In this document: positions 911-47,906 of the stretch, piece by piece
How positions within the stretch are numbered: position 1 is the first letter of the stretch
How the letters are laid out: every line of letters starts with the position of its first letter
Notes under the pieces: generated by a model
The model's input: only the letters and a program-made list of their open reading frames with translations
The model's database searches: none
Told to the model about the DNA's origin: nothing
From: an uncultured Gammaproteobacteria bacterium
GTDB taxonomy: Bacteria > Pseudomonadota > Gammaproteobacteria > UBA9214
Length of the DNA: 64,000 nucleotides
NCBI GenBank assembly: GCA_963701455.1
Contig: CAVPAE010000006.1
Location: forward strand, 900,458-964,457
Direction: 5' to 3'
Position numbers and translations under genes: made by a program

Positions 911-2065
911 GTGTAGGTCGTCATAAATAATGTAACATATAAGCTCTTGCGAAGTACTGAGGGCTTCCTATGCGAATTGCGGTAGAAATTGCTTTGTCTG
1001 AGGATGAAGTCGCTCACCTGAGCAAGTTGTCAAAATCACGTTCAGTATCCGTGCGGCTTGCAGAACGTTCACGAATTATTCTGCTGGCAGGGACGGGCAT
1101 GACCAATGAAGAGATTGGCGATGAACTGGGCATTACAAGACAGAAGGCGGGCCGCTGGCGAGTGCGCTACGCCGAAAGTGGAATCGACGGTATCAGCCAG
1201 GATGCATCTCGACCCGGACGAAAACCAAAGATCAGTTCACGCAAAGTCGCGAAAGTGATTAAGCTCACAACACAAACGACACCGGAAAATGCAACGCATT
1301 GGAGCCAACGTCTGATGGCAGAGAAGGTAGGCATCAGCATGTCATCAGTGGGGCGGATATGGAAAAGTCATGGTTTGAAACCGCACCGGGTGAGTACGTT
1401 CAAGCTATCAAATGATAAAGCGTTTGCTGAGAAGCTGGAGGCTATTGTCGGCCTTTATGTGTCCCCTCCAGAAAATGCCATCGTATTGAGTTGTGATGAA
1501 AAGAGTCAGATACAAGCATTGGATAGAACACAGCCTGGCTTGCCGATGAAGAAAGGCAAGGTGGCAACCATGACACATGACTATAAACGCAATGGCACCA
1601 CGACTCTGTTTGCCGCACTGAACACGTTAACAGGAGAAGTACTGGGTACCTGTACCCAGCGGCATCGACATCAGGAATGGCTGGTGTTTCTACGCAAGAT
1701 CAATCAATCCACGCCCAAGGATAAAGACATTCACATTATCTGTGATAACTATGCGACGCATAAACACCCAAAGGTGAAAAGCTGGTTGAGATATCACAAA
1801 CGTTTCCACGTCCATTTTACGCCGACCAGTGCATCGTGGCTAAACATGGTAGAACGATTCTTTCGTGAGTTGACTGATAAGCAGTTAAGACGGGGCGTGT
1901 TTAGCAGCGTGAAAGAACTTCAAGAGTCAGTGATGACATTCATTGAGAAGCACAATAAAGCCCCAGCACCTTACATCTGGACCAAGTCAGCAACCGACAT
2001 CCTGGAGAAAGTGAAGCGCGGGAGAGAAAATCTCAATAAGTTACAGACTGTTTGACGAGGTACAC
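911..2065 (+). mobile_element. IS630-family insertion sequence (copy A), flanked by TA
   Basis: Imperfect terminal inverted repeats gtgtaggtcgtc / gtgtacctcgtc. TA at 909-910 and at 2066-2067. The target gene has TA at the equivalent position (444-445). Confidence 0.7.
970..2055 (+). CDS. IS630-family DDE transposase
   Basis: 361 aa. N-terminal helix-turn-helix region. DDE region with the conserved blocks HDYKRNGTTTLFAALN, ICDNYATHK and SWLNMVERFF. Confidence 0.85.
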   Translation: MRIAVEIALSEDEVAHLSKLSKSRSVSVRLAERSRIILLAGTGMTNEEIGDELGITRQKAGRWRVRYAESGIDGISQDASRPGRKPKISSRKVAKVIKLTTQTTPENATHWSQRLMAEKVGISMSSVGRIWKSHGLKPHRVSTFKLSNDKAFAEKLEAIVGLYVSPPENAIVLSCDEKSQIQALDRTQPGLPMKKGKVATMTHDYKRNGTTTLFAALNTLTGEVLGTCTQRHRHQEWLVFLRKINQSTPKDKDIHIICDNYATHKHPKVKSWLRYHKRFHVHFTPTSASWLNMVERFFRELTDKQLRRGVFSSVKELQESVMTFIEKHNKAPAPYIWTKSATDILEKVKRGRENLNKLQTV

Positions 2066-2067
2066 TA

Positions 2068-3209
2068 GTGGTCCATGCGGTTAATTCTGTAACGCGTCCT
2101 TTGCGCGACCGACAGCGGCCAGGATATGACTGGCCGGTTTCGTCCACTTGAAGGGCTTGGCACTCTCGGCGTTGTGAGCCTTAATGAACCGTTCCAACTC
2201 GGCCTTCAGTTCTGGCACGCTGGTAAAGACACCCCGATACAAGGCACGCCGTTCCAGTTGCGCAAACCAGCCTTCCACCGCATTGAGCCAGGACGAACTG
2301 GTCGGTGTGAAATGCAGATGAATGCGCGGGCGTAAAGCCACCCACTCCTGAACTGCCTGCGTTTTGTGGGCACTCAGGTTGTCTACAATAATATGTAATT
2401 GCCGATCCGCCGGGGTGCGTCGATCGAGCAGCTTTAGGAACGACAGAAATGCCTTGCTGTTCGTGCGCTCTGCCACTTTGCCGATCACTTTTCCGGTCAA
2501 TGTGTTGAATGCCGCATACAAGCTGGTGGTGCCGTTCCTTTTATAGTCGTGGGTGCGACTACCGATTCGGCTGGGATTGAGCGGCAATCCCGGTTGGGTA
2601 CGATCCAACGCTTGAATCTGCGTCTTCTCATCCACACTGAGCACCACGGCGTTTTCCGGCGGGTTCATGTAAAGGCCGATAATATCGACGACCTTCTCGG
2701 CAAACTGTGGATCGTTGCTGATCTTGAACGTCTTCAAGCGATGCGGCCGCAGGTCTGCCGCCTTCCAGATCTGGCGAACCTGCCAGGGCGTGACATCCGC
2801 ATAGCTCGCCATCAACTCAATGCTCCAGTGCGTCGCTTCCTGGGGGACCCGTTTGGTCGTCAAAAACAAAACCTTTTCCACTGTCTTCTTGTCGATGACT
2901 GTCGGGCGTCCGCTGCGCGCCCGCTCCAGCAGGCCGTCAATCCCTTCGGCTTCAAATCGATTTCGCCAGCGATGTACCGTCTTTGCCGTGGTTCTCTGAG
3001 CGGTGGCCACTTGTGTCGGTGTCATCCCCTCACTGAGCTGAAGGATGATCTTCGCCCGCATGATCTGACCATGCGGGAGCGTGGTCGAACGGCACCACTC
3101 GTTCAGCACTGCTGCATCCTTGTCGGACAATTGAAAGGTCTTGGGTAAGCGCATGCCATAGTGTATATGCCCTGAACTATTAATAACAATATTTTACGCA
3201 TGAACCACT
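2068..3209 (-). mobile_element. IS630-family insertion sequence (copy B, a different member), inserted at the TA adjacent to copy A
   Basis: Terminal inverted repeats gtggtccatgcggttaat / gtggttcatgcgtaaaat. TA at 2066-2067 and at 3210-3211. The interrupted gene resumes at 3212. Confidence 0.7.
2081..3154 (-). CDS. IS630-family DDE transposase
   Basis: 357 aa, paralogous to 970..2055. Conserved blocks HDYKRNGTTSLYAAFN, VDNLSAHK and SWLNAVEGWF. Confidence 0.85.
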   Translation of the reverse strand: MRLPKTFQLSDKDAAVLNEWCRSTTLPHGQIMRAKIILQLSEGMTPTQVATAQRTTAKTVHRWRNRFEAEGIDGLLERARSGRPTVIDKKTVEKVLFLTTKRVPQEATHWSIELMASYADVTPWQVRQIWKAADLRPHRLKTFKISNDPQFAEKVVDIIGLYMNPPENAVVLSVDEKTQIQALDRTQPGLPLNPSRIGSRTHDYKRNGTTSLYAAFNTLTGKVIGKVAERTNSKAFLSFLKLLDRRTPADRQLHIIVDNLSAHKTQAVQEWVALRPRIHLHFTPTSSSWLNAVEGWFAQLERRALYRGVFTSVPELKAELERFIKAHNAESAKPFKWTKPASHILAAVGRAKDALQN

Positions 3210-3332
3210 AGCACATTGCTTCTAGATATCAAATTTCAAGAATTAGCTTTATTGGGTGTTTCAGCTTTTTATGGATTGGTTTCGCTGTTTCAGGGTAATC
3301 ATCCCTTTTTTAACCGGCACCAAAAGTAGACG

Positions 3333-4157
3333 TCATGCTGCTACCAGCATGTGTTTTGGTGGAAAGCCACCATTGGCCTTGTTGGGCCGTTCATGATTGT
3401 AGAACCAGAGCCACTGCGTAGCATAGTCCTGAACCTCTTCGATTGAGTCGAACTGGTACTGGCTCAGCCAGCTGTAGCGAACCGTTCGGTTGTAGCGTTC
3501 GACATAGGCATTCTGTTGTGGCTTGCCTGGCTGGATGAATTCCAGCTGGATGTCGTGCCTGCCCGCCCATACTTCCAGGTCCTGACTGATGAATTCCGGG
3601 CCGTTGTCACAACGTAGCCGGCCAGGTTTGCCGCGCCATTCGATGATCTGATCCAGCGCCCGGATCACACGTACGGCGGGCAGCGAGAAATCGGCTTCAA
3701 TGCCCAGCCCCTCACGGTTGAAGTCATCCAGCACATTGAACAACCGGAAGGTACGACCATCCGTCAGCTGATCATGCATGAAGTCCATGGACCAAGTCGC
3801 ATTCGGCGCTTCGGGCACTGTCAGTGGCACAGGTTTTTCACGCTGCATTCGTCGCTTGGGCTTGATTCGCAGGTTCAATTCCAACTCGCAGTAAATCCGA
3901 CGGATACGCTTGTGGTTCCAGGCAAAACCCTTGACGTTACGCAGATAGTCCCGGCACAGACCGAAGCCCCAGTCCTTCTGATTATGCGTCAACCGGACCA
4001 GCCAGTCGGCAATCTCGGCATTCTCATCGGACAGGATCGGTTGGTAACGATAGCAGGTCTCGCTGATGCCAAAGGCCACGCAAACCAGGCGAACACTGGC
4101 ACCGTATGTCGATGCCGCTTCCTTGGCCATCTCCTTGCGTCGAGATGGCCTCACCAC
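3333..4157 (-). CDS. IS3-family transposase OrfB (integrase catalytic core)
   Basis: 274 aa with a DDE/rve-type core ([10 protein letters not shown]..., ...CDNGPEFIS...). Confidence 0.85.
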
Positions 4158-4417
4158 TTTTTTGCCAGCGCCTCCTGGACCATCTCCGCCTTGAGACGCT
4201 CATCGGCATACATCTTCTTCAGCCGCCGGTTCTCGTCCTCCAGCTCCTTCAGGCGCTTCATCAGTGAGGCATCCATCCCTCCGAACTTGGCGCGCCACTT
4301 GTAAAATGCCGCGCTGCTCATGCCGTGTTCCCGGCACAGCGCCGGCACCGGCGTCCCGGCCTCGGCCTGCTTCAGAATCGCCAGGATCTGGCTGTCACTA
4401 TAACGTGATGTTTTCAT
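4151..4417 (-). CDS. IS3-family transposase OrfA (helix-turn-helix)
   Basis: 88 aa with a helix-turn-helix and leucine zipper. It overlaps OrfB at the AAAAAAG heptamer (minus strand, about 4152-4160), consistent with a -1 programmed frameshift. Confidence 0.8.
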
Positions 4418-4738
4418 GCAGAATCTCCTCTTAACCTATTATGAGAAAATTCTACTTCTGATGTCAGCTAGTTTTGGGGATGATTACCTCAGGACTTCTC
4501 ATACTATCGAGGATACGGAAGCGGAAGACAGTTGCTTGGTAAATTTATTGAGTGTCATCCCAAATTAAAAGTATGGACAGTAGGCTACTGTGTGTTTGTA
4601 TTACCGTACTTAATTTATAAGATTCAAGCTGATAATGAGGTTTCTGGAGTGTTGTACTTTTTGAGCCTTCTACTACTGATCGGGCTATTCGTATATGTAT
4701 CAGAGGTTGAGCGTTTTCATTCAATGGGCGACAAGAAT

Positions 4739-4799
4739 GCCTAACAAACGCCTCCAAGGCGACGCGGCTCCGCCGCGCGCTTGAGGCGAGGCGTTATGT
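4739..4799 (+). other. attC recombination site (cassette 3, duplicate of the 775-835 site; core GTTATGT)
   Basis: Identical to attC 2 apart from the last bases of the core, which derive from the downstream cassette. Confidence 0.65.
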
Positions 4800-4834
4800 T
4801 TAAAAAACAAAAATATTGGAGCCTCTAGATTTAA

Positions 4835-5488
4835 ATGGATACAAATACATGGTTAATAACTGTTTTTGGCATATATATAGCGAGTGTTGTCACGTACTCA
4901 ATAGTATATTTCCGGTTGTATGAAAAAGATCACTCTCGTTTTCTATTTAATGAAAAGGCCATGGAGAAGCAGCATAACAACCTTATCGATAAATTAAATA
5001 AAACCACTTCAGATTCCATCAAAAACAGCCCGTTACTTTTAGATGTTTTAGGTTATTTAGAAAAGCATCAGGAAATTAAAAGTATTAAAAATAAATGGAT
5101 CCTACTTGAATCTGGTAATAGCTTTAAATACAGCAGGGATGCCTTTGCACATCAAGGAGGTGCGCATGTTTTGACCACCTTAAAAATAAGAGATGAAAAA
5201 GAAGAATTGATTTTTGACCACAGATGGAACGACGTAGATGGGTTAATAAAGATAATTTCGGAACACATGTCTAGCACAGAGGCGCTAATTAAATCTTTAA
5301 GTCATAAAATAAGCACATCTGAAAACCAGTATCCTGATTTTTGGTCATATTTTGACTTTTTATATTTTAGTGTAATTAGCCAAACCACTGTTGGATATGG
5401 TGATATTCTCCCGAACTCTACTTTGATAAGGAAAGTCGTAATCACTCTAGTAATGCTAGGCCTACTTACTATTTGTTGTCATAATTAA
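4835..5488 (+). CDS. Cassette-encoded 2-TM potassium-channel-like protein (selectivity filter TTVGYGD) with a ~135-aa domain inserted between TM1 and the pore helix
   Basis: 217 aa. TM1 is residues about 6-27. The pore helix and filter are FSVISQTTVGYGDILP. The C-terminal TM is VVITLVMLGLLTICC. Confidence 0.55.
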   Translation: MDTNTWLITVFGIYIASVVTYSIVYFRLYEKDHSRFLFNEKAMEKQHNNLIDKLNKTTSDSIKNSPLLLDVLGYLEKHQEIKSIKNKWILLESGNSFKYSRDAFAHQGGAHVLTTLKIRDEKEELIFDHRWNDVDGLIKIISEHMSSTEALIKSLSHKISTSENQYPDFWSYFDFLYFSVISQTTVGYGDILPNSTLIRKVVITLVMLGLLTICCHN

Positions 5489-5507
5489 TCTGTCTTTTCA
5501 GGCGCAA

Positions 5508-5580
5508 ACATAACAAATCGTTCATGTGGGAATTTTGTTACGCTGCGCTTCACAAAATCCCCATAACTCAAACGTTAGGC
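5508..5580 (+). other. attC recombination site (cassette 4; degenerate inverse core ACATAAC, core GTTAGGC)
   Basis: Core GTTAGGC at 5574-5580 is preceded by ctcaaac as in attC 1. Internal pairing aacaaa/tttgtt. Confidence 0.45.
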
Positions 5581-5606
5581 AGCTACCATGAGCCATAAAG
5601 GGATAC

Positions 5607-5801
5607 ATGAACTTTAACGGACTACAAAAGACTTATTGGGAACAGCAAATTGCGCGTGTAGAACGTGTTCGCGAGCAGATAGCTTCCCGACTGAATATCA
5701 GTCCCGGTCGCACCATCCCCGACACAACAGATCTTGCTATAGGCAACAGGTCGCAGATTGTCTGCAGCCATAATGTTCATCGATATTTGTGGATTCTCTA
5801 A
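5607..5801 (+). CDS. Small ORF at the start of cassette 5 (64 aa). It may be an independent small protein or the frameshifted N-terminus of the downstream cyclase.
   Basis: ATG with a good ribosome-binding site (aaaggga). It overlaps the cyclase ORF by 44 nt in another frame. The cyclase frame has a stop only 6 codons before its start. Confidence 0.25.
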   Translation: MNFNGLQKTYWEQQIARVERVREQIASRLNISPGRTIPDTTDLAIGNRSQIVCSHNVHRYLWIL

Positions 5802-6360
5802 TCGTCCATCTGAGACAGAGGCAGAACAGGCAGCGTTAATGGCTGCGCTCAATCTGTTTTTTTCTGAAATGATTAAAATTGCGGAAGACTATGGCGGGAC
5901 TGTAGAAAAGAATACCGGTGATGGTTTAATGGCCTATTTTGAGGATGGAACTTCAACACCGCCAGAAAATGGGCCACACAGAGCAGTCGCGTGTGCCTTA
6001 ACCATGATGGCAGCTTCAGAGCATTTGCTGAATCCAATTCTTGCGAGATCGGACATCGACCCTATTCAGTTTCGCATATGCATTGATTCGGGCAACGTGA
6101 CAATAGCCAAGCTTGGTGCAGCTAGACGATTCAATGCGGTAGTGGCAATAGGTACAACTGCTAATGTTGCATCAAAGATGCTCGCAACTGCCAAAGCCGG
6201 ACAAATACTTCTAGGCGAGAATGTAAAAGCAAAACTGCCTTTAGAATGGCAGGTTTCTTGGGTGAAATTGCATACGTACAAGACAGGGTGGGTATTCCGT
6301 ACTAACGAACAACCCTATTCCTTTTATCTGTTCGACGCACATTGGGCAAGGTTACTGTAA
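5758..6360 (+). CDS. Class III nucleotidyl (adenylyl/guanylyl-type) cyclase catalytic domain, stand-alone (~200 aa)
   Basis: CHD (cyclase homology domain) motifs: RRLSAAIMFIDICGFS (metal-binding Asp), EKNTGDGLMAYF (second Asp), FRICIDSGNVTIAKLG, GTTANVASKM. Start is TTG at 5758 or ATG at 5773. Confidence 0.7.
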   Translation: MSAAIMFIDICGFSNRPSETEAEQAALMAALNLFFSEMIKIAEDYGGTVEKNTGDGLMAYFEDGTSTPPENGPHRAVACALTMMAASEHLLNPILARSDIDPIQFRICIDSGNVTIAKLGAARRFNAVVAIGTTANVASKMLATAKAGQILLGENVKAKLPLEWQVSWVKLHTYKTGWVFRTNEQPYSFYLFDAHWARLL

Positions 6361-7001
6361 TGGGAAATGACTCTAATGAATTGGCCTCGAAAAGCCAAAT
6401 TCCAATTCCTGCTGAGCTTGAGGGTAAAAACCTGGGGACTCCTGCCCGGCAAGGGAAAAGCGGTGATGTTAGTGGGGTTGTCGCAGAATCAGAGCAATCA
6501 GATACGAAAAAAATAGATCATGTGGATAAATATGCCAAGCATCTCCACTCGTACATTCGGGAATATATATCCGCAGCTGATAAAAAGGCTTCATTTGTGT
6601 TTGCAATTGGAGCTGCACTGTTGGTGTATCTTTATGAAAAGAATCTTGCCGTAACCTGGGTCAAGGCTGTAAATACATGGACCCTTAATGAAGGGATCAT
6701 CTTTTTAGCAATTATAGGCCTCGCTATATCGTGCCTTCTTTCAATTTTGGTTGTTGTCCCTTTTCTTAAAGGCTCAAGGAGAGGGTTTGTTTTTTGGGAC
6801 TCCATCGCTGAATTTAGCAACTCTTCTGAGTTTTCGAATGAGCTATTTAAGCTGGGCGACTCACAGCTAACGGAAGAAATACTACGGCACTCTTACGAGC
6901 TCTCGCGCGTGTGCAAACGGAAATATCTATTACTGAACTGGTCATTAAGAGTTGGTGCAGTAGGCGCAATATGTACGTTGCTTGTTCTTGTAAAAGGGTG
7001 A
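6342..7001 (+). CDS. Multi-TM membrane protein co-encoded with the cyclase; candidate membrane-disrupting effector (SLATT-like topology)
   Basis: 219 aa. Overlaps the cyclase ORF by 19 nt. N-terminal soluble/low-complexity region, then TM helices FVFAIGAALLVYLY and IIFLAIIGLAISCLLSILVVVPFL, a ~70-aa soluble segment, and a C-terminal TM VGAVGAICTLLVLV. Confidence 0.55.
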   Translation: MGKVTVMGNDSNELASKSQIPIPAELEGKNLGTPARQGKSGDVSGVVAESEQSDTKKIDHVDKYAKHLHSYIREYISAADKKASFVFAIGAALLVYLYEKNLAVTWVKAVNTWTLNEGIIFLAIIGLAISCLLSILVVVPFLKGSRRGFVFWDSIAEFSNSSEFSNELFKLGDSQLTEEILRHSYELSRVCKRKYLLLNWSLRVGAVGAICTLLVLVKG

Positions 7002-7010
7002 TAAAACGCT

Positions 7011-7065
7011 GCCTAACAAGGCGCCCCAGCCGGACGCTTCGCGCCGCTGGGCTTGGTCGTTAGGC
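7011..7065 (+). other. attC recombination site (cassette 5)
   Basis: GCCTAAC at 7011-7017 and GTTAGGC at 7059-7065. Internal dyad gcgccccagc...gctgggcttggtc. Confidence 0.7.
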
Positions 7066-7118
7066 ATAACGAGTTAAAGTGCCAGTATATTTATAGATAG
7101 AAAAGGGCTATTACACTT

Positions 7119-8003
7119 ATGAAATACGAAAACCCTAATGAATTACGCAAAGCTTGGCTGTCAAATGATAAAACATGGTCGCAGGCTCGTAAAAAAGAGT
7201 GGGGACGAATTAATGAAAAAATTAAGAGTCGCGCGTTCCAGTTTGTTAGAGCTCATGACAATATCAAAAGACTGAAAAGCTATTTTTTGACTGGCTTTCC
7301 GCCAGGCCCGGTTCCTAATGACGAACTAGATCTGCATAAATATTATTTTCGACCCCTTGCAGGGATTCCAGGAAATATCCTCTTTGAATGCTGGCTTTCA
7401 CCCGATCACTCTAAAGAATATTTCTCTGAAGTTATTGAAAGAAACCCGGACAACCTTGTAGATAGCCGTAACAGATTTAGAAAAATGGTGCGGGATTTTT
7501 TTCCTGAAAAAGAGGGGACACTATTTGACGGGCTCGAATCGGATTTCTATCTATTGTTGGGTGGGAACAGGTGTAGAAAAGATATCGAATATCCTGATAT
7601 TGATGACGATGAATATAAAAAAAGATGTCACACGCACTTTAATGAATGCCTGCCAATTATTAATCGGGTACTTTTTGCTGAGCCTGAAGACGTGAATACT
7701 AAAGATATTGCCCATTTGATGGTGGCAGAATTCATTGATAGTTATACAGGTTCATTTGAATTAGTAGTTAACCATGAATATGAAGAAGGGCTAACGTTCA
7801 AAGACTATGGTCTTGATGAAATCCGTCGTAGCCAGCTCGAACGCTGTAGTGAAATACTAAAGGCGGAAGATAAATTACACCCTCGACAGATTGAAATTGC
7901 AACGCAGCTTTTGAGCTCAATAAATGAGTTGAAATTACATGAAGAACTTGAAAAAGTGATCTCACCATATTTGATAGACACCATAAATTCGCATGATGCC
8001 TAA
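7119..8003 (+). CDS. Cassette-encoded hypothetical soluble protein (294 aa)
   Basis: Clean ORF with a ribosome-binding site. Its TAA stop lies inside the next attC inverse core. No recognisable motifs. Confidence 0.55.
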   Translation: MKYENPNELRKAWLSNDKTWSQARKKEWGRINEKIKSRAFQFVRAHDNIKRLKSYFLTGFPPGPVPNDELDLHKYYFRPLAGIPGNILFECWLSPDHSKEYFSEVIERNPDNLVDSRNRFRKMVRDFFPEKEGTLFDGLESDFYLLLGGNRCRKDIEYPDIDDDEYKKRCHTHFNECLPIINRVLFAEPEDVNTKDIAHLMVAEFIDSYTGSFELVVNHEYEEGLTFKDYGLDEIRRSQLERCSEILKAEDKLHPRQIEIATQLLSSINELKLHEELEKVISPYLIDTINSHDA

Positions 8004-8060
8004 CAAGGCAAATTCAGCTGACGCGCCAAAGGCGCGCGCGGCTGATTTGCGGCGTTAGAG
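7998..8060 (+). other. attC recombination site (cassette 6; core GTTAGAG)
   Basis: GCCTAAC at 7998-8004. Dyad gctgacgcgcc...ggcgcgcgcggctga. Confidence 0.6.
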
Positions 8061-8112
8061 GGCTGAATATAACGTCTTGACGTTATGGCGACATAGTGCT
8101 ATATATTACCCC

Positions 8113-8346
8113 ATGAGCAGTGATCCCAAACGAGCAACCGTATATTTTGATCCAGCGCTTCACCGCGCACTCCGGGTCAAAGCAGCAGAGACTGAGCGAT
8201 CCATATCGGACCTGGTCAATGAGGCTGTGCAATTAAGCCTTGTTGAGGATGCCGAGGACCTTGCTGCTTTCGAAGACAGGGTGAACGAGCCCAGCTTGCC
8301 GTATGAAGATGTCGTTAAAGATCTGAAACGACGTGGAAAAATATAA
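8113..8346 (+). CDS. Type II antitoxin, ribbon-helix-helix (RelB/ParD-like)
   Basis: RATVYFDPALHRALRVKAAETERSISDLVNEAV is an RHH antitoxin signature. It overlaps the downstream toxin gene by 14 nt. Confidence 0.7.
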   Translation: MSSDPKRATVYFDPALHRALRVKAAETERSISDLVNEAVQLSLVEDAEDLAAFEDRVNEPSLPYEDVVKDLKRRGKI

Positions 8347-8602
8347 GGTATCGATTAAGCGTTCTGCGGTGAAAGAAATTGAAGCCATACCGCAAAAGAA
8401 AGAACGGCAACGCATAATCCGTCGCATTGGCCAACTGGCTAATGATCCACGCCCCCCAGGTTCAAAGAAGCTATCCGGTCATGATAAATATCGGATACGC
8501 CAAGGTTCTTATCGTATTGTATACAGCATCGAAGGTAATGAGCTTGTCGTCGTTGTAGTGAAGGTGGGTCATCGGAAGGATGTTTACCGTGGCGCCCTCT
8601 AA
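8333..8602 (+). CDS. Type II toxin, RelE/ParE family
   Basis: 89 aa. KLSGHDKYRIRQGSYRIVYSIEGNELVVVVVKVGHRKDVY is typical of the RelE/ParE fold. GTG start. Confidence 0.8.
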   Translation: MEKYKVSIKRSAVKEIEAIPQKKERQRIIRRIGQLANDPRPPGSKKLSGHDKYRIRQGSYRIVYSIEGNELVVVVVKVGHRKDVYRGAL

Positions 8603-8656
8603 CAACTCAGCCCAGTCCGACGCGCTGACGCGCGCTGCTGGCTTCAGCCGTTAGGT
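8597..8656 (+). other. attC recombination site (cassette 7; core GTTAGGT)
   Basis: Inverse core CTCTAAC overlaps the relE stop. Dyad cagcccagtccgacgcg...cgcgctgctggcttcag. Confidence 0.6.
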
Positions 8657-15886: not shown

Positions 15887-16795
15887 CCGCTCCTGCACGT
15901 AATAGAAGCACCTGTAGGAGTACCCTGAAGGGCATAAACGCCGCCCTTCGGCGCGATTGTTTGAGGCGCCCATCGCGGTCAGGAGACCGCTCCTGCACGT
16001 AATAGAAGCGCCTGCAGGAGCGCCGTCCTTCGGCGCGATTGCTTGAGGCAGGCAATCGCGGTCAGAAGACCGCTCCTGCACGTAATCAAGAAGCACCTGT
16101 AGGAGCGCCGCCCTTCGGCGCGATTGCTTGAGGTCAAGCCCATCGCGGTCAGAAGACCGCTCCTGCACGTAATAGAAGCACCTGCAGGAGCGCCGTCCTT
16201 CGGCGCGATTGCTTGAGGCGCCCATCGCGGTCAGAAGACCGCTCCTGCACGTAATAGAAGCACCTGCAGGAGCGCCGTCCTTCGGCGCGATTGCTTGAGG
16301 CAGCCAATCGCGGTCAGGTGACCGCTCCTGCACGTAATAGAAGCACCTGCAGGAGCGCCGTCCTTCGGCGCGATTGCTTGAGGCAGGCAATCGCGGTCAG
16401 GTGACCGCTCCTGCACGTAATAGAAGCGCCTGCAGGAGCGCCGTCCTTCGGCGCGATTGCTTGAGGCAGGCAATCGCGGTCAGAAGACCGCTCCTGCACG
16501 TAATAGAAGCGCCTGCAGGAGCGCCGTCCTTCGGCGCGATTGCTTGAGGTGCCCATCGCGGTCAGGTGACCGCTCCTGCACGTAATAGAAGCGCCTGCAG
16601 GAGCGCCGTCCTTCGGCGCGATTGCTTGAGGCGGCAATCGCGGTCAGGTGACCGCTCCTACACGTAATAGAAGCACCTGTAGGAGCGCCGTCCTTCGGCG
16701 CGATTGCTTGAGGCAGGCAATCGCGGTCAGAAGACCGCTCCTACACCACCAGGTGCACCTGTAGGAGCGGCCTTTGGCCGCGATCGCTTTGCTGG
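15872..16795. repeat. Tandem array of about 11 copies of an ~82-bp palindromic repeat unit
   Basis: Unit: atcgcggtcagRRgaccgctcctgcacgtaatagaagcRcctgYaggagcgccgYccttcggcgcgattgcttgagg plus about 8 variable bases. Each unit contains two hairpins. Confidence 0.85.
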
Positions 16796-45323: not shown

Positions 45324-47906
45324 ATGAGCGATTTCGCAAAAGAAATACTGCCCGTCAATCTCGAGGACGAGATGAAGCAGTCCTACCTCGATTACGCCAT
45401 GAGCGTGATCGTGGGACGGGCATTGCCGGATGTGCGTGACGGTCTGAAGCCGGTGCATCGCCGTGCGCTCTTCGCCATGAGCGAGCTGGGCAACGACTGG
45501 AACAAGGCCTACAAGAAATCGGCGCGTATCGTCGGTGACGTCATCGGTAAATACCACCCGCATGGCGATACCGCGGTGTACGACACGATCGTGCGCATGG
45601 CGCAGCCGTTCTCGCTGCGCTACATGCTGGTCGACGGCCAGGGCAACTTCGGTTCCGTGGATGGCGATTCCCCGGCCGCGATGCGTTATACCGAAGTCCG
45701 CATGGCGCGGATAGCGCACGAGCTGATCGCCGATATCGACAAGGAAACCGTCGATTTCGTTCCCAACTATGACGAGACCGAGCACGAACCTTCGGTCTTC
45801 CCGACGCGTTTACCGAACCTGCTGGTCAACGGCTCTGCCGGTATTGCCGTGGGCATGGCGACCAACATTCCGCCGCACAACCTGACGGAAATCATCAGCG
45901 CCTGTCTTGCGATTATCGACAATCCCGAGATCGATATCGACGGACTGATGGAATACGTGCCGGGTCCGGATTTCCCGACGGCCGGGATCATCAACGGTGT
46001 GCGTGGCATTCACGAGGCCTATCGCACCGGGCGCGGCCGCATCCAGATACGGGCGCGCAATCACGTCGAGACCGACGAGGCCCGTGGGCGGCAACACCTT
46101 GTGTTTACCGAGTTGCCCTACCAGGTGAACAAGGCGCGCCTGCTGGAAAAGATCGCCGAGCTGGTCAAGGACAAGAAGATCGAGGGTATCTCCGGCCTGC
46201 GCGACGAGTCCGACAAGGACGGCATGCGCATGGTCGTGGACCTGAAGCGTGGTGAAGTGGCGGAAGTGGTGCTGAACAACCTCTACCAGCATACCCAGCT
46301 GCAGAATGTCTTCGGCATCAACATGGTGGCGCTGGTCGATGGCCGCCCGCAGCTGCTGAACCTGAAGCAGTGCCTTGAGGCCTTCATTCGTCACCGCCGC
46401 GATGTGGTTACCCGGCGCACCGTGTTCGACCTGCGCAAGGCGCGCCAGCGGGCCCACATCCTGGAAGGCCTCGCCGTCGCGCTGGCCAATATCGATGAGG
46501 TGATCCGGGTCATCAAGTCATCGCCCAACCGCGCCGTGGCCAAGGAGGCCCTGATGGCCCGCAGCTGGGAACCGGGGGCGGTGACCGACATGCTGGAACG
46601 CTCCGGCAGCGATTGCCACGCGGCCGGATGAACTGGAAGAAGGTTACGGACTGGTGGCCGATGGCTACCGTCTGTCCGAGGCACAGACCCAGGCCATCCT
46701 CGATCTGCGCCTGCACCAGCTGACCGGGCTGGAGCAGGACAAGATTGTCGACGAATACAAGGAACTGCTCGACCTGATCGACGAACTGCTGGCCATCCTG
46801 CAGAATCCGGAGCGCCTGATGCAGGTGATTCGCGACGAGCTGACCGAGATACGCGACCAGTTACGGGGATGAGCGCCGCACGGAAATCCTCACCGACCAT
46901 CTCGATCTCACGCTGGAAGACCTGATCACCGAGGAAGACGTGGTGGTGACGCTGTCGCATGCCGGCTATGCAAAATCCCAGCCGCTGTCGGACTACCGCG
47001 CCCAGCGCCGTGGCGGCCGCGGCAAGAGTGCGGCGGACGTCAAGGAAGAGGATTTCATCGACAAGCTGTTTATCGCCAGCACCCACGATACCATTCTGTG
47101 CTTCTCCAGCCGCGGCAAGGTTTACTGGCTCAAGGTCTACGAATTGCCGCAGGCCGGCCGCGCCGCGCGCGGCAAGCCGATCGTGAACCTGCTGCCGCTG
47201 GAGGCGGACGAGCGCATCAATGCGATTCTGCCGATACGTGATTTTTCCGACGGACCACTACGTGTTCATGGCGACGGCGCTGGGTACCGTGAAGAAGACG
47301 CCGCTGGTGGATTTCTCCCGCCCGCGTGCCAACGGCATCATCGGCATCGACCTGCGCGACGAGGACTACCTGATCGATGTGGCGATCACCGATGGCACCC
47401 AGGACATCATGCTGTTCAGCAATGCCGGCAAGGTGATCCGCTTCCGCGAGGCTGACGTGCGTGCCATGGGACGCACCGCCTGCGGCGTGCGCGGCATCAA
47501 GCTGCAGTCAGGTCAGCAGGTCATTTCCCTGATCATCGCCAGCGAGAGCCCGGTACTGACCGCTACCGAGAACGGCTATGGCAAGCGCACCCTGGCCGCG
47601 GACTACCCCGTTTACGGCCGTGGTGGCCAGGGGGTCATCGCCATCCAGGTTACGGAAAGAAATGGTGCCGTTGTGGGCGCTGTGCCTGCTGACGAAACGG
47701 ACGAAGTCATGTTGATCAGCGGCGGCGGGACACTGGTGCGCACCCGCGTCAACGAGATCTCCGTGATGGGCAGGAATACCCAGGGCGTGCGCCTGATCGC
47801 CCTGGATGCCGGCGAACAGCTGGTCGGTATCGAGCGCATTATCGAGGATCGTGGCGAGGACGAAGATGCCGACGATGCCAAAACGAATGAGGAAACATCA
47901 GAATGA
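45324..47906 (+). CDS. gyrA: DNA gyrase subunit A; reading frame interrupted by three apparent 1-bp insertions (near 46613, 46863, 47254)
   Basis: [47 protein letters not shown]... Canonical GyrA sequence continues across ORF-track pieces 45249..46631, 46654..46872, 46940..47455 and 47220..47906. Deleting one base at each site restores [25 protein letters not shown] and [15 protein letters not shown]. Confidence 0.85.

Follow-up and report, generated by a model that had tools for sequence, protein, structure and literature searches.

At positions 5575..7059 on the + strand of the window, the 64,000 nucleotide stretch of DNA analysed here, lies an integron cassette of 1,485 bp as assembled, or 1,484 bp without one extra adenine. 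This carries a class III cyclase gene, pycC, and a membrane protein gene, pycTM. It is preceded by the attC site of an ion-channel-like cassette (5505..5580, + strand), a bottom-strand hairpin with an R' core of GTTAGGC at 5574-5580 and a crossover at G5574/T5575, and ends in its own attC site (7011..7065, + strand), with an R'' core of GCCTAAC at 7011-7017, an R' core of GTTAGGC at 7059-7065 and a crossover at G7059/T7060. The bottom strand of the latter folds into an imperfect hairpin (-17.9 kcal/mol, z = -2.5) in which GCCTAAC pairs with GTTAGGC. Three metagenome contigs (L001, L002 and L003) are 98% identical to the cassette at the nucleotide level, with similarity confined to 5575..7059 and unrelated flanks, and the limits of the cassette were set at these coordinates because the homology begins exactly at G/TTAGGC and stops at G/TTA. 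A further locus, L049, shares 81% identity with the cassette across this interval and likewise has unrelated flanks, and in both L049 and another locus, L050, the gene pair is followed by the same attC site as that of the window cassette. The recurrence of this unit in different contexts, between G/TT crossover boundaries, points to its being mobile. A first-pass annotation, made from the sequence of the window, had proposed one cassette between attC sites ending at 5580 and 7065, on which the core sites, the hairpin fold and the homology limits agree. All attC assignments rest on where the core motifs lie, how the sites fold and where homology to other loci stops, as strict regular expression scans missed even known sites.

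The cassette belongs to the promoter-distal part of a chromosomal array in the metagenome-assembled genome (MAG) of an uncultured gammaproteobacterium. Other attC sites in the window are found at 775-835, 4739-4797, 7998-8059 and 8600-8656, and the array is distinguished by a low GC content of 42-50%, relative to 62% in the host. On its left side it continues beyond the window, so that no intI is visible, and its other end is found near 9.1 kb, beside an mscL-like gene; based on the orientation of the cassettes, intI would lie to the left of the window. Toxin-antitoxin cassettes share the array. Three IS elements are located upstream of the Pycsar cassette within the array, and a search of the + strand between 4400 and 7300 revealed no sigma-70-like promoter, hence expression in this host is doubtful.

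The pycC gene is divided in the assembly. Its 5' part (5607..5741, + strand), with a purine-rich AAAGGGA sequence 4 nt upstream of the ATG at 5607, encodes residues 1-45 (MNFNGLQ...DTTDLA), including the N-terminal helix region, and its 3' part (5743..6360, + strand) encodes the class III catalytic core and a C-terminal beta-hairpin region. An extra A at 5741 (+ strand) converts ATG into ATAG, thereby shifting the pycC frame and generating a TAG at 5740-5742 in the frame of the cyclase. The 3' part consequently appears in the list of open reading frames as 5758..6360, with a TTG start, while the gene call of the source genome (P0144) is a 195 aa product starting at the ATG at 5773. The first-pass annotation had taken 5758..6360 to encode a minimal stand-alone cyclase of ~200 aa, an interpretation that has to be abandoned: homologues are ~250 aa long and align to the reading frame at 5607..5741, which is in another frame, joined to 5743..6360, and the cyclase looks minimal because the single extra base splits the gene and cuts off the N-terminal helix. 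In L001, L002 and L003 pycC is intact and starts at the equivalent of the ATG at 5607, with the extra A representing the sole gap relative to these 98% identical copies. A programmed +1 frameshift at 5739-5745 was considered and rejected, as no slippery motif and no known +1 motif is present (AUA-G-GCA or GGC-A-ACA) and the same three copies lack the base.

The first-pass identification of a class III cyclase possessing both metal-binding aspartates and the conserved arginine and asparagine was upheld. The protein matches the Pfam Guanylate_cyc profile (PF00211; 2e-13, 50.8 bits relative to a cut-off of 21.9), and the PADLOC PycC profiles match both the window reading frame (2.5e-19) and an intact relative (PDLC02367; 7.4e-24, residues 19-228 aligned to profile positions 9-209 of 226). 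In the numbering of the intact protein, the metal-binding residues D59 (FIDICGFS) and D105 (NTGDG), both present in the window, are invariant in 111 homologues, as are R156 and N186. No AGS-C or other Pfam domain besides Guanylate_cyc was found in PycC at E values up to 10, and an NCBIfam search returned only a sub-threshold match to a cyclase domain. NCBI and JGI annotate the protein simply as 'adenylate/guanylate cyclase'. The predicted structure of a 91% identical intact protein (pLDDT 88.6) has a helix at residues 8-28 and a beta-hairpin formed by the C-terminal ~45 residues. The N-terminal alpha-helix of PycC, described as its hallmark, touches the opposing protomer (PMC11224242); this helix is found in the family and in the 98% identical copies, and is encoded in the window at 5607-5741, severed from the core by A5741. 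The best fold match to the model is the cUMP synthase BcPycC (7r65; Foldseek E 2.9e-15, TM 0.73/0.80), over 243 columns that include the N-terminal helix, and the uridylate cyclase AnPycC (8jsz) ranks third, whereas ordinary adenylate and guanylate cyclases match over the core of ~200 residues only. At the level of sequence, the core is closer to CyaB (3r5g; 1.6e-22), which forms cAMP, than to the solved PycC structures (7r65, 1.6e-8; 6yii, 7e-8; 8jsf, 4e-6; 8jsz, 1e-3).

The pycTM gene (6360..7001, + strand) encodes a protein of 213 aa and is translationally coupled to pycC, its start codon overlapping the pycC stop codon in the sequence TAATG. The first-pass annotation had described a second gene of 219 aa at 6342..7001 with three transmembrane helices; hydropathy and a structural model agree on three hydrophobic helices (approximately residues 77-93, 112-133 and 195-212), but the start codon is the ATG at 6360, at the methionine where the homologues begin, rather than the TTG at 6342. 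Both the Pfam PycTM profile (PF18967; 2.7e-11, 44.2 bits relative to a gathering score of 27.2) and the PADLOC PycTM profile (2.9e-26) match the protein, as do the PADLOC CBASS 'Effector 2TM' profiles more weakly (1e-11 to 1e-7). Residues 1-49 form an extension predicted to be disordered, containing the motif IPIPxELEGKxLG, ahead of the three-helix PycTM domain. A Foldseek search of the PDB with the model gave no meaningful match, which is attributed to the absence of PycTM structures from the set searched and to the mediocre quality of the model (pLDDT 67). A Pfam search likewise detected no CAP-type domain, a feature that in the first-pass annotation had suggested an undescribed variant. This suggestion falls, as the protein matches the PycTM profiles and PycTM normally has no such domain: the PADLOC profiles are 154-165 positions long and therefore leave no room for one, and it is the TIR effector that carries the CAP-type cNMP-binding domain in Pycsar (PMC11224242). 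The PycTM family is large, comprising 1,043 representatives when clustered at 50% identity.

Judged by their sequences, both proteins are members of the known PycC and PycTM families and nothing about them is undescribed. The two are found together in ~36 of 45 related genome loci, distributed across several phyla and mostly outside integrons, usually with overlapping start and stop codons, and at 11 loci a second cyclase is present directly upstream, which is a trait of Pycsar-1 (bioRxiv 10.64898/2026.08.12.744502). In L049 the pair adjoins conjugation genes, and in L050 it lies beside a putAbiC gene. A plasmid collection contained no DNA match to the cassette, and the PycC protein matches in it were all below 36% identity; a phage collection gave no PycC protein match. 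The idea of a 'streamlined' integron version of Pycsar was discarded, as the gene sizes of 250 and 213 aa are the same in relatives outside integrons. The first-pass proposal of a Pycsar-type cyclic nucleotide defence module within an integron cassette is borne out by the two profile matches and the confirmed cassette, which is very probably a two-gene abortive infection system pairing a PycC cyclase with a PycTM membrane effector. By analogy with characterised Pycsar systems (PMC11224242; bioRxiv 10.64898/2026.08.12.744502), phage infection would lead a dimeric PycC, using its two metal-binding aspartates, to cyclise an NTP to a 3',5'-cNMP; this would activate PycTM, compromising the inner membrane, such that the infected cell would stop growing or die before phage progeny could be released.

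Whether the pair functions in this strain depends in part on A5741, which may be a real mutation. This possibility, tentatively held here as the lesser one, would leave a 64 aa N-terminal peptide and, at best, a poorly initiated core of 195-200 aa lacking the N-terminal helix; the cassette might then be a decaying, silent copy kept at the array's distal end and the system would probably be dead in this strain, since loss of a helix that contacts the opposing protomer (PMC11224242) plausibly abolishes activity. The base is present in the deposited assembly, as reflected in the 195 aa gene call, and lies outside any homopolymer; selection may also be weak on a cassette that is far from the integron promoter, downstream of three IS elements and devoid of its own promoter-like site, and another family member, in a Nitrospirales MAG (L042), similarly has a split cyclase. 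However, within the same window the essential gene gyrA has three single-base insertions, two of A and one of G, at approximately 46603, 46861 and 47252 when compared with a GyrA of 94% identity, showing that such errors occur in this assembly, and for this reason the extra A is judged more probably to be an assembly error, in which case the real gene would encode an intact PycC of 250 aa. The 94% identical gyrA reference served as calibrator, a scan for GC3 frame switches being too noisy to estimate indel density; the errors do not appear to be uniformly dense, because the reading frames across ~14 kb (47.9 to 61.8 kb) have the lengths expected for their apparent identity. Also counting against inactivation, pycC and pycTM contain no other lesion, their differences from L001 are preferentially synonymous (pN/pS, leaving aside the indel, of 0.36 for pycC and 0.12 for pycTM), and the close relatives are all intact: a very close strain (ERR12037370) encodes an identical PycTM, the same downstream neighbour and a 250 aa cyclase. 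The repaired 250 aa protein has no exact match in the protein collection searched, so there is no identical intact copy on record. An undescribed defence variant, in which a minimal cyclase acts with a novel membrane effector devoid of any cNMP sensor, would accord with the undetectable CAP-type domain, the failure of Foldseek to find any solved structure resembling the effector and the ~50 aa N-terminal extension that is missing from the PADLOC PycTM profiles, yet it is most improbable: curated Pycsar profiles match both proteins over essentially their full domain lengths, the small size of the cyclase is the product of the frameshift, the lack of a PDB match has the causes given above, and the extension is a low-complexity, poorly conserved sequence common to many family members. 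Scarcely any credence attaches to a housekeeping signalling cyclase that happens to adjoin an unrelated membrane protein and has no role in defence; the generic database annotations would permit this, but the pairing with PycTM is retained across phyla, defence-specific profiles match the pair, and it is carried on mobile units or alongside conjugation and putAbiC genes.

The signal of the pair is, by analogy, most likely to be cUMP, as all of the characterised PycC clades, A to D, make this molecule (PMC11224242), models favour UTP as the substrate of Pycsar-1, -2 and -3 (bioRxiv 10.64898/2026.08.12.744502) and the best full-length fold matches, 7r65 and 8jsz, are uridylate cyclases. The residues at the base-selecting positions of BcPycC, AnPycC and EaPycC are nonetheless different in this protein (F57, K101, T103, G106 and M108), and K190 replaces the canonical transition-state arginine of the N-x-x-x-R motif. 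The same architecture could employ another signal, with this PycC clade making a purine cNMP, either cGMP, as in Pucsar, or cAMP, in place of cUMP or cCMP; strictly speaking, the pair would then not count as a pyrimidine cyclase system. Such an alternative, considered unlikely, is consistent with K101 (D105-4), at least 90% conserved, occupying the position of the adenine-specifying lysine of class III adenylate cyclases, and with the adenylate cyclase CyaB being the closest PDB entry by sequence; furthermore, cGMP is the product in a sister branch of Pycsar-1 that shares its two classes of effector, and the use of ATP is predicted for another branch (bioRxiv 10.64898/2026.08.12.744502). By contrast, the second adenine-specifying position, an aspartate or threonine, is here a non-conserved V, N or Y, and the guanine-recognising glutamate of PfPucC (E118, i.e. 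D122-4; bioRxiv 10.64898/2026.08.12.744502) is replaced by lysine. Drawing together the CyaB-like core, the lysine at the purine-specifying position, the lysine in place of the catalytic arginine and the disordered extension of PycTM, it can also be conjectured that the signal nucleotide of the clade is neither cUMP nor cCMP and that the cassette represents the first documented integron-shuffled cyclic mononucleotide defence system, though this is a combination in which still less confidence is placed. Were it true, integrons would capture cyclic mononucleotide defence and shuffle it between hosts, the same cassette being found in several arrays and beside conjugation genes.

Returning to the favoured reading, an ordinary Pycsar pair whose cyclase is probably intact, the value of the analysis is mostly corrective: existing profiles recognise the system, and the apparent minimal cyclase is the result of a single-base frameshift in a MAG assembly that contains errors, which cautions against reading novelty from raw open reading frames. 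Beyond this, a complete, full-size Pycsar pair is found packaged as one integron cassette, recurring at 81-98% identity in several marine or sediment metagenome contexts, and a large, uncharacterised clade of PycC is brought to notice.

The first report of Pycsar is attributed to Tal et al. (Cell). The year 2021 is given for the first description of the system in PMC11224242 (its reference 3), in which the AnPycC-AnPycTM pair from Anabaena is characterised. The window pair resembles PycC-PycTM systems in being a two-gene operon that encodes a single-domain cyclase of class III fold, with a small C-terminal beta-hairpin and, in its intact form, an N-terminal helix, together with an effector built on a ~160 residue, three-helix PycTM domain, both genes being matched by curated profiles; an abortive infection logic would, by analogy, also be shared. 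It differs in that its cyclase shares just 17-19% identity with PycC proteins of solved structure, in the base-selecting residues of its family, with K190 in place of arginine, in the ~50 aa disordered extension of its effector and in its location on an integron cassette. The closest structural counterpart over the full length is BcPycC from Burkholderia cepacia LK29 (PDB 7R65, clade B), at 229 aa relative to 250 aa, although this is 19% identical in sequence and is paired with a CNBD-TIR effector instead of PycTM; the residues by which it selects UTP, namely Y50, D94 and R97 (PMC11224242), correspond, with approximate offsets, to F57, T103 and G106.

Similarly related is Pucsar (PucC with PucTM or PucTIR), which also combines a stand-alone, Pycsar-related cyclase with a three-helix effector, described as pJV1-spdB3-like and forming hexameric membrane assemblies in the course of abortive infection; its cyclases, however, make cGMP and have a glutamate at the base-recognition position occupied by lysine in the window family (bioRxiv 10.64898/2026.08.12.744502). 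The cyclase of Pycsar-2, described in the same preprint, is fused to a C-terminal AGS-C sensor domain that has no equivalent here. CBASS systems with two-helix effectors, whose PADLOC profiles match more weakly (1e-11 to 1e-7), likewise convert a nucleotide signal into a response at the membrane, but depend on a CD-NTase as opposed to a class III cyclase, and the PycTM profile scores far better (3e-26). With regard to integrons, Pycsar is not mentioned in the text and one supplement available for a study of defence in sedentary chromosomal integrons (bioRxiv 10.1101/2024.07.02.601686), and no paper in the literature collection searched connects Pycsar with attC sites or integron cassettes. As in the systems of that study, the window pair is a complete system, comprising at most two genes, within one cassette of a large array, alongside toxin-antitoxin cassettes; unlike them, it is not shortened relative to its counterparts outside integrons and its host is not a Vibrio, extending the concept of integrons as stores of defence systems both beyond this genus and beyond the types of system listed so far.

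The two translationally coupled genes in the window appear, from their sequences, to constitute a standard Pycsar system, comprising a PycC cyclase and a PycTM protein, the latter being the receptor-effector partner of PycC (PMC11224242). The first-pass annotation's proposal of a Pycsar-type class III cyclase and transmembrane effector module thus holds, with both genes matching Pycsar profiles, but its suggestion of an undescribed variant does not, since both are detected by PADLOC and Pfam and are arranged in the canonical architecture. When the cyclase assignment was checked by profile search, the ORF as found in the window matched Guanylate_cyc (2e-13) and 13 PADLOC PycC profiles (best 2.5e-19). 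The effector matches the Pfam PycTM family ('Pycsar effector protein') with 44.2 bits, relative to a gathering score of 27.2, and PADLOC PycTM at 2.9e-26, with CBASS 2TM effector profiles weaker. Its gene, previously placed from 6342 and credited with 219 aa, instead starts at the ATG at 6360, overlapping the cyclase stop codon as TAATG, and its product has 213 aa, a length and start shared by all homologues. Three hydrophobic spans among the helices, evident in both the structural model and hydropathy, agree with the three transmembrane helices originally predicted, and residues 1-49 are disordered. Canonical PycTM profiles span only 154-165 positions, such that the missing CAP-type domain is normal for this class and no sign of a new variant. 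The family includes 1,043 representatives of 150-236 aa at the 50% identity cluster level (E up to 1e-3). PADLOC PycTM profiles begin only at around residue 56 of the effector; the disordered extension that precedes this (residues 1-50, window 6360-6510) contains a motif, IPIPxELEGKxLG, conserved in close relatives, and distant members retain a variable, proline-rich N-terminal extension.

The cyclase had been described as 'minimal', but its homologues are about 250 aa in length and its small size is the product of a single-base frameshift in the window. Relative to three metagenome contigs carrying a 98%-identical cassette (L001-L003), the sole gap in the DNA alignment is found where the window has GCTATAGGC and the others GCTATGGC; the one extra A, at position 5741, brings TAG (5740-5742) into the reading frame of the cyclase. 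A query in which the upstream ORF starting at 5607, in the other frame, was joined to the cyclase frame retrieved more than 1,000 proteins, and among the matches listed nearly all were approximately 250 aa long with 100% coverage of the construct. Conservation is good across the first 45 residues (M1, L6, Y10, W11, R17, R22, I25, G34 and P38), and proteins in the closest 90% cluster have 250 aa, the exception being P0144, the 195-aa product called in the source genome itself (contig of 966,777 bp). With the intact protein, the match to PADLOC profile PDLC02367 improved to 7.4e-24, covering residues 19-228. The AlphaFold model of an intact, 91%-identical PycC (P0001; pLDDT 88.6) has a helix at residues 8-28 and a strand at 30-33 ahead of the first core strand at 47-60. 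Its best full-length PDB match is the uridylate cyclase BcPycC (7r65; E 2.9e-15, TM 0.73/0.80, 243 columns), with another uridylate cyclase, AnPycC (8jsz), also among the best, whereas ordinary adenylate and guanylate cyclases align over only around 200 columns. The N-terminal helix, a hallmark of PycC that packs against the opposing protomer in BcPycC and AnPycC (PMC11224242), is exactly the element severed from the cyclase in the window.

The extra A is probably an artefact of sequencing or assembly. The gyrA gene (45324-47906, + strand) is split into four frame segments in the window, with tblastn using a 94%-identical GyrA (P0153) locating +1 changes at approximately 46603 (an extra A, GGCGCG to GGCAGCG), 46861 (an extra A, TTC to TTAC) and 47252 (an extra G, GACGAC to GACGGAC); the source genome's GyrA call is only a 435-aa fragment (P0151). 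As gyrA is essential, these insertions are sequencing or assembly errors, and they bear on the reading of any frameshift in the window; they are alike in kind to the pycC insertion, two of the three also being A insertions outside homopolymers. They argue against the alternative that the extra A is a real mutation and pycC a genuine pseudogene, as do the differences from L001 in pycC and pycTM, which are otherwise mainly synonymous (pN/pS 0.36 and 0.12, respectively, based on few sites), and a very close strain (Logan ERR12037370) with an identical PycTM, a 250-aa cyclase and a start-to-start distance one base shorter. Conversely, the errors occur in clusters and not evenly, the ORFs from 47.9 to 61.8 kb being of the length expected for their apparent identity, and an exact look-up of the repaired PycC found it absent from the protein collection. 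On balance, a pseudogene is the less likely reading, albeit one with an appreciable chance of being correct. A programmed frameshift is very unlikely, with no known motif present and relatives lacking the base.

The cassette boundaries originally annotated were essentially right. Contigs L001 (ENA), L002 (JGI) and L003 (Logan), all of which encode the effector protein, share 98% identity with the window across 5569-7062 by blastn and no similarity outside, with DNA alignments placing the limits at G|TTAGGC and G|TTA, between unrelated flanks; in L001 the neighbouring cassettes are instead one for an HTH protein on the upstream side and one with a ParE-type toxin-antitoxin pair on the downstream side. 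An 81%-identical copy on contig L049 (9216-10706) is identical in extent and retains the attC. Because the boundaries agree across copies in unrelated flanks, 5575..7059 is a real, mobile cassette. The L049 copy lies directly downstream of genes for TraI (TraI_2 relaxase), a TraG coupling protein and a DtrJ-like protein (flanks 4058-8472), with no integrase found in the 9 kb upstream, and may belong to a cassette cluster that either resides on a conjugative element or lacks an integrase. At a further locus, L050, a putAbiC gene follows the pair. No close relative was found among plasmid or phage collections. Inspected loci beyond the window's own clade have no obvious attC flanks, which makes the integron cassette one of several vehicles.

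Two GTTAGGC cores (5574-5580, 7059-7065) and one GCCTAAC core (7011) lie within 5400-7300, and the bottom strand of 7008-7068 folds into an imperfect hairpin joining both cores (-17.9 kcal/mol, z = -2.5). Similar folding is seen at 775-835, 4739-4797, 7998-8059 and 8600-8656. These attC-like sites separate short same-strand ORFs, one encoding a small lipoprotein, in the first ~9.2 kb of the window, where GC content is 42-50% compared with ~62% in the remainder. This low-GC region is the promoter-distal end of a chromosomal integron array, ending near 9.1 kb beside an mscL-like gene; the array continues past the left window edge, hence no integrase is seen within the window. The cassette after the Pycsar pair encodes a 294-aa protein (7119-8003, + strand) with no Pfam or PADLOC match, and the Logan contig from ERR12037370 has an equal-length gene at the same spacing 3' of its pair. 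Beyond this, an RHH antitoxin and ParE toxin share one cassette (8077-8602, + strand), such pairs being typical stabilising cargo of chromosomal integrons. Directly upstream of the Pycsar cassette is an unusual channel-like cassette (4835-5488, + strand), encoding a 217-aa protein with a selectivity filter of the potassium-channel type (TVGYGD); its Pfam Ion_trans_2 match (1.2e-12) is confined to the last ~50 residues, the N-terminal 160 lacking a family assignment. Further upstream are two IS630-like elements with DDE_3 domains (970-2055, + strand; 2081-3154, - strand) and an IS3-family element (3333-4417, - strand). A cassette ORF's C-terminal portion and attC occur twice, at 316-835 and 4532-4797, with these elements (970-4417) between the copies, and the arrangement suggests IS-mediated rearrangement of the array. 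Expression in the window's host is uncertain, given these upstream elements and the lack of a promoter-like site on the + strand between 4400 and 7300. In the host part of the window, an 83-bp unit is tandemly repeated at 15939-16746 (9.7 copies, 93% identity); conservation of whole units rules out a CRISPR-like repeat.

A preprint describes chromosomal integrons as reservoirs for defence systems of at most two genes (bioRxiv 10.1101/2024.07.02.601686), a picture that the Pycsar cassette fits; Pycsar in cassettes is mentioned neither in its text and one supplement nor elsewhere in the literature searched. Compared with relatives outside integrons, the pair is not shortened. When one genome per species was scanned, 45 loci were found; in around 36 of them a PycTM gene comes immediately after a 250-aa cyclase, its start codon usually overlapping the cyclase stop. 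Hosts include Gamma-, Beta-, Alpha- and Deltaproteobacteria, Acidobacteriota, Verrucomicrobiota, Fibrobacteres and others. In eleven loci (L005, L007, L022, L029, L031-L033 and L035-L038), a second, divergent cyclase ORF of ~320 aa directly precedes the 250-aa PycC, ~1 kb upstream of its match, a trait assigned to the Pycsar-1 subclade in the Pucsar preprint (bioRxiv 10.64898/2026.08.12.744502). By its GyrA, the window's host falls among uncultured, sulfur-oxidiser-like marine Gammaproteobacteria, the relatives being a 'Gammaproteobacteria bacterium' MAG (94%), Thiogranum (83%), and Sedimenticola and Thiodiazotropha (~80%).

The analysis shows that both proteins belong to their families, that the catalytic residues are intact, that the genes are coupled in an operon, that their pairing is conserved and that the cassette is mobile. 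By analogy with known systems, phage infection would activate the PycC dimer, leading to accumulation of a 3',5'-cNMP, upon which PycTM, probably as an oligomer, would disturb the membrane and abort the infection. PycC clades A-D produce cUMP and clade E cCMP (PMC11224242), while Pucsar, a sister branch, produces cGMP, using a Glu at the position that precedes the second catalytic Asp by four residues (bioRxiv 10.64898/2026.08.12.744502). At this position the window's PycC family instead has a Lys (K101), at least 90% conserved, and in place of the transition-state Arg of the N-x-x-x-R motif of class III cyclases, as aligned to CyaB, is K190 (ANVASKM). As K101 is of the adenylate cyclase type and K190 replaces this Arg, product specificity is not obvious from these residues of PycC (5743-6360). 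A purine cyclic nucleotide would be consistent with K101 and with CyaB being the nearest core by sequence (1.6e-22, ahead of 7r65 at 1.6e-8), but such a product is unlikely: the Asp or Thr that partners this Lys in adenylate cyclases is missing from the window's PycC family, and the nearest full-length folds are those of uridylate cyclases, leaving cUMP as the favoured product.
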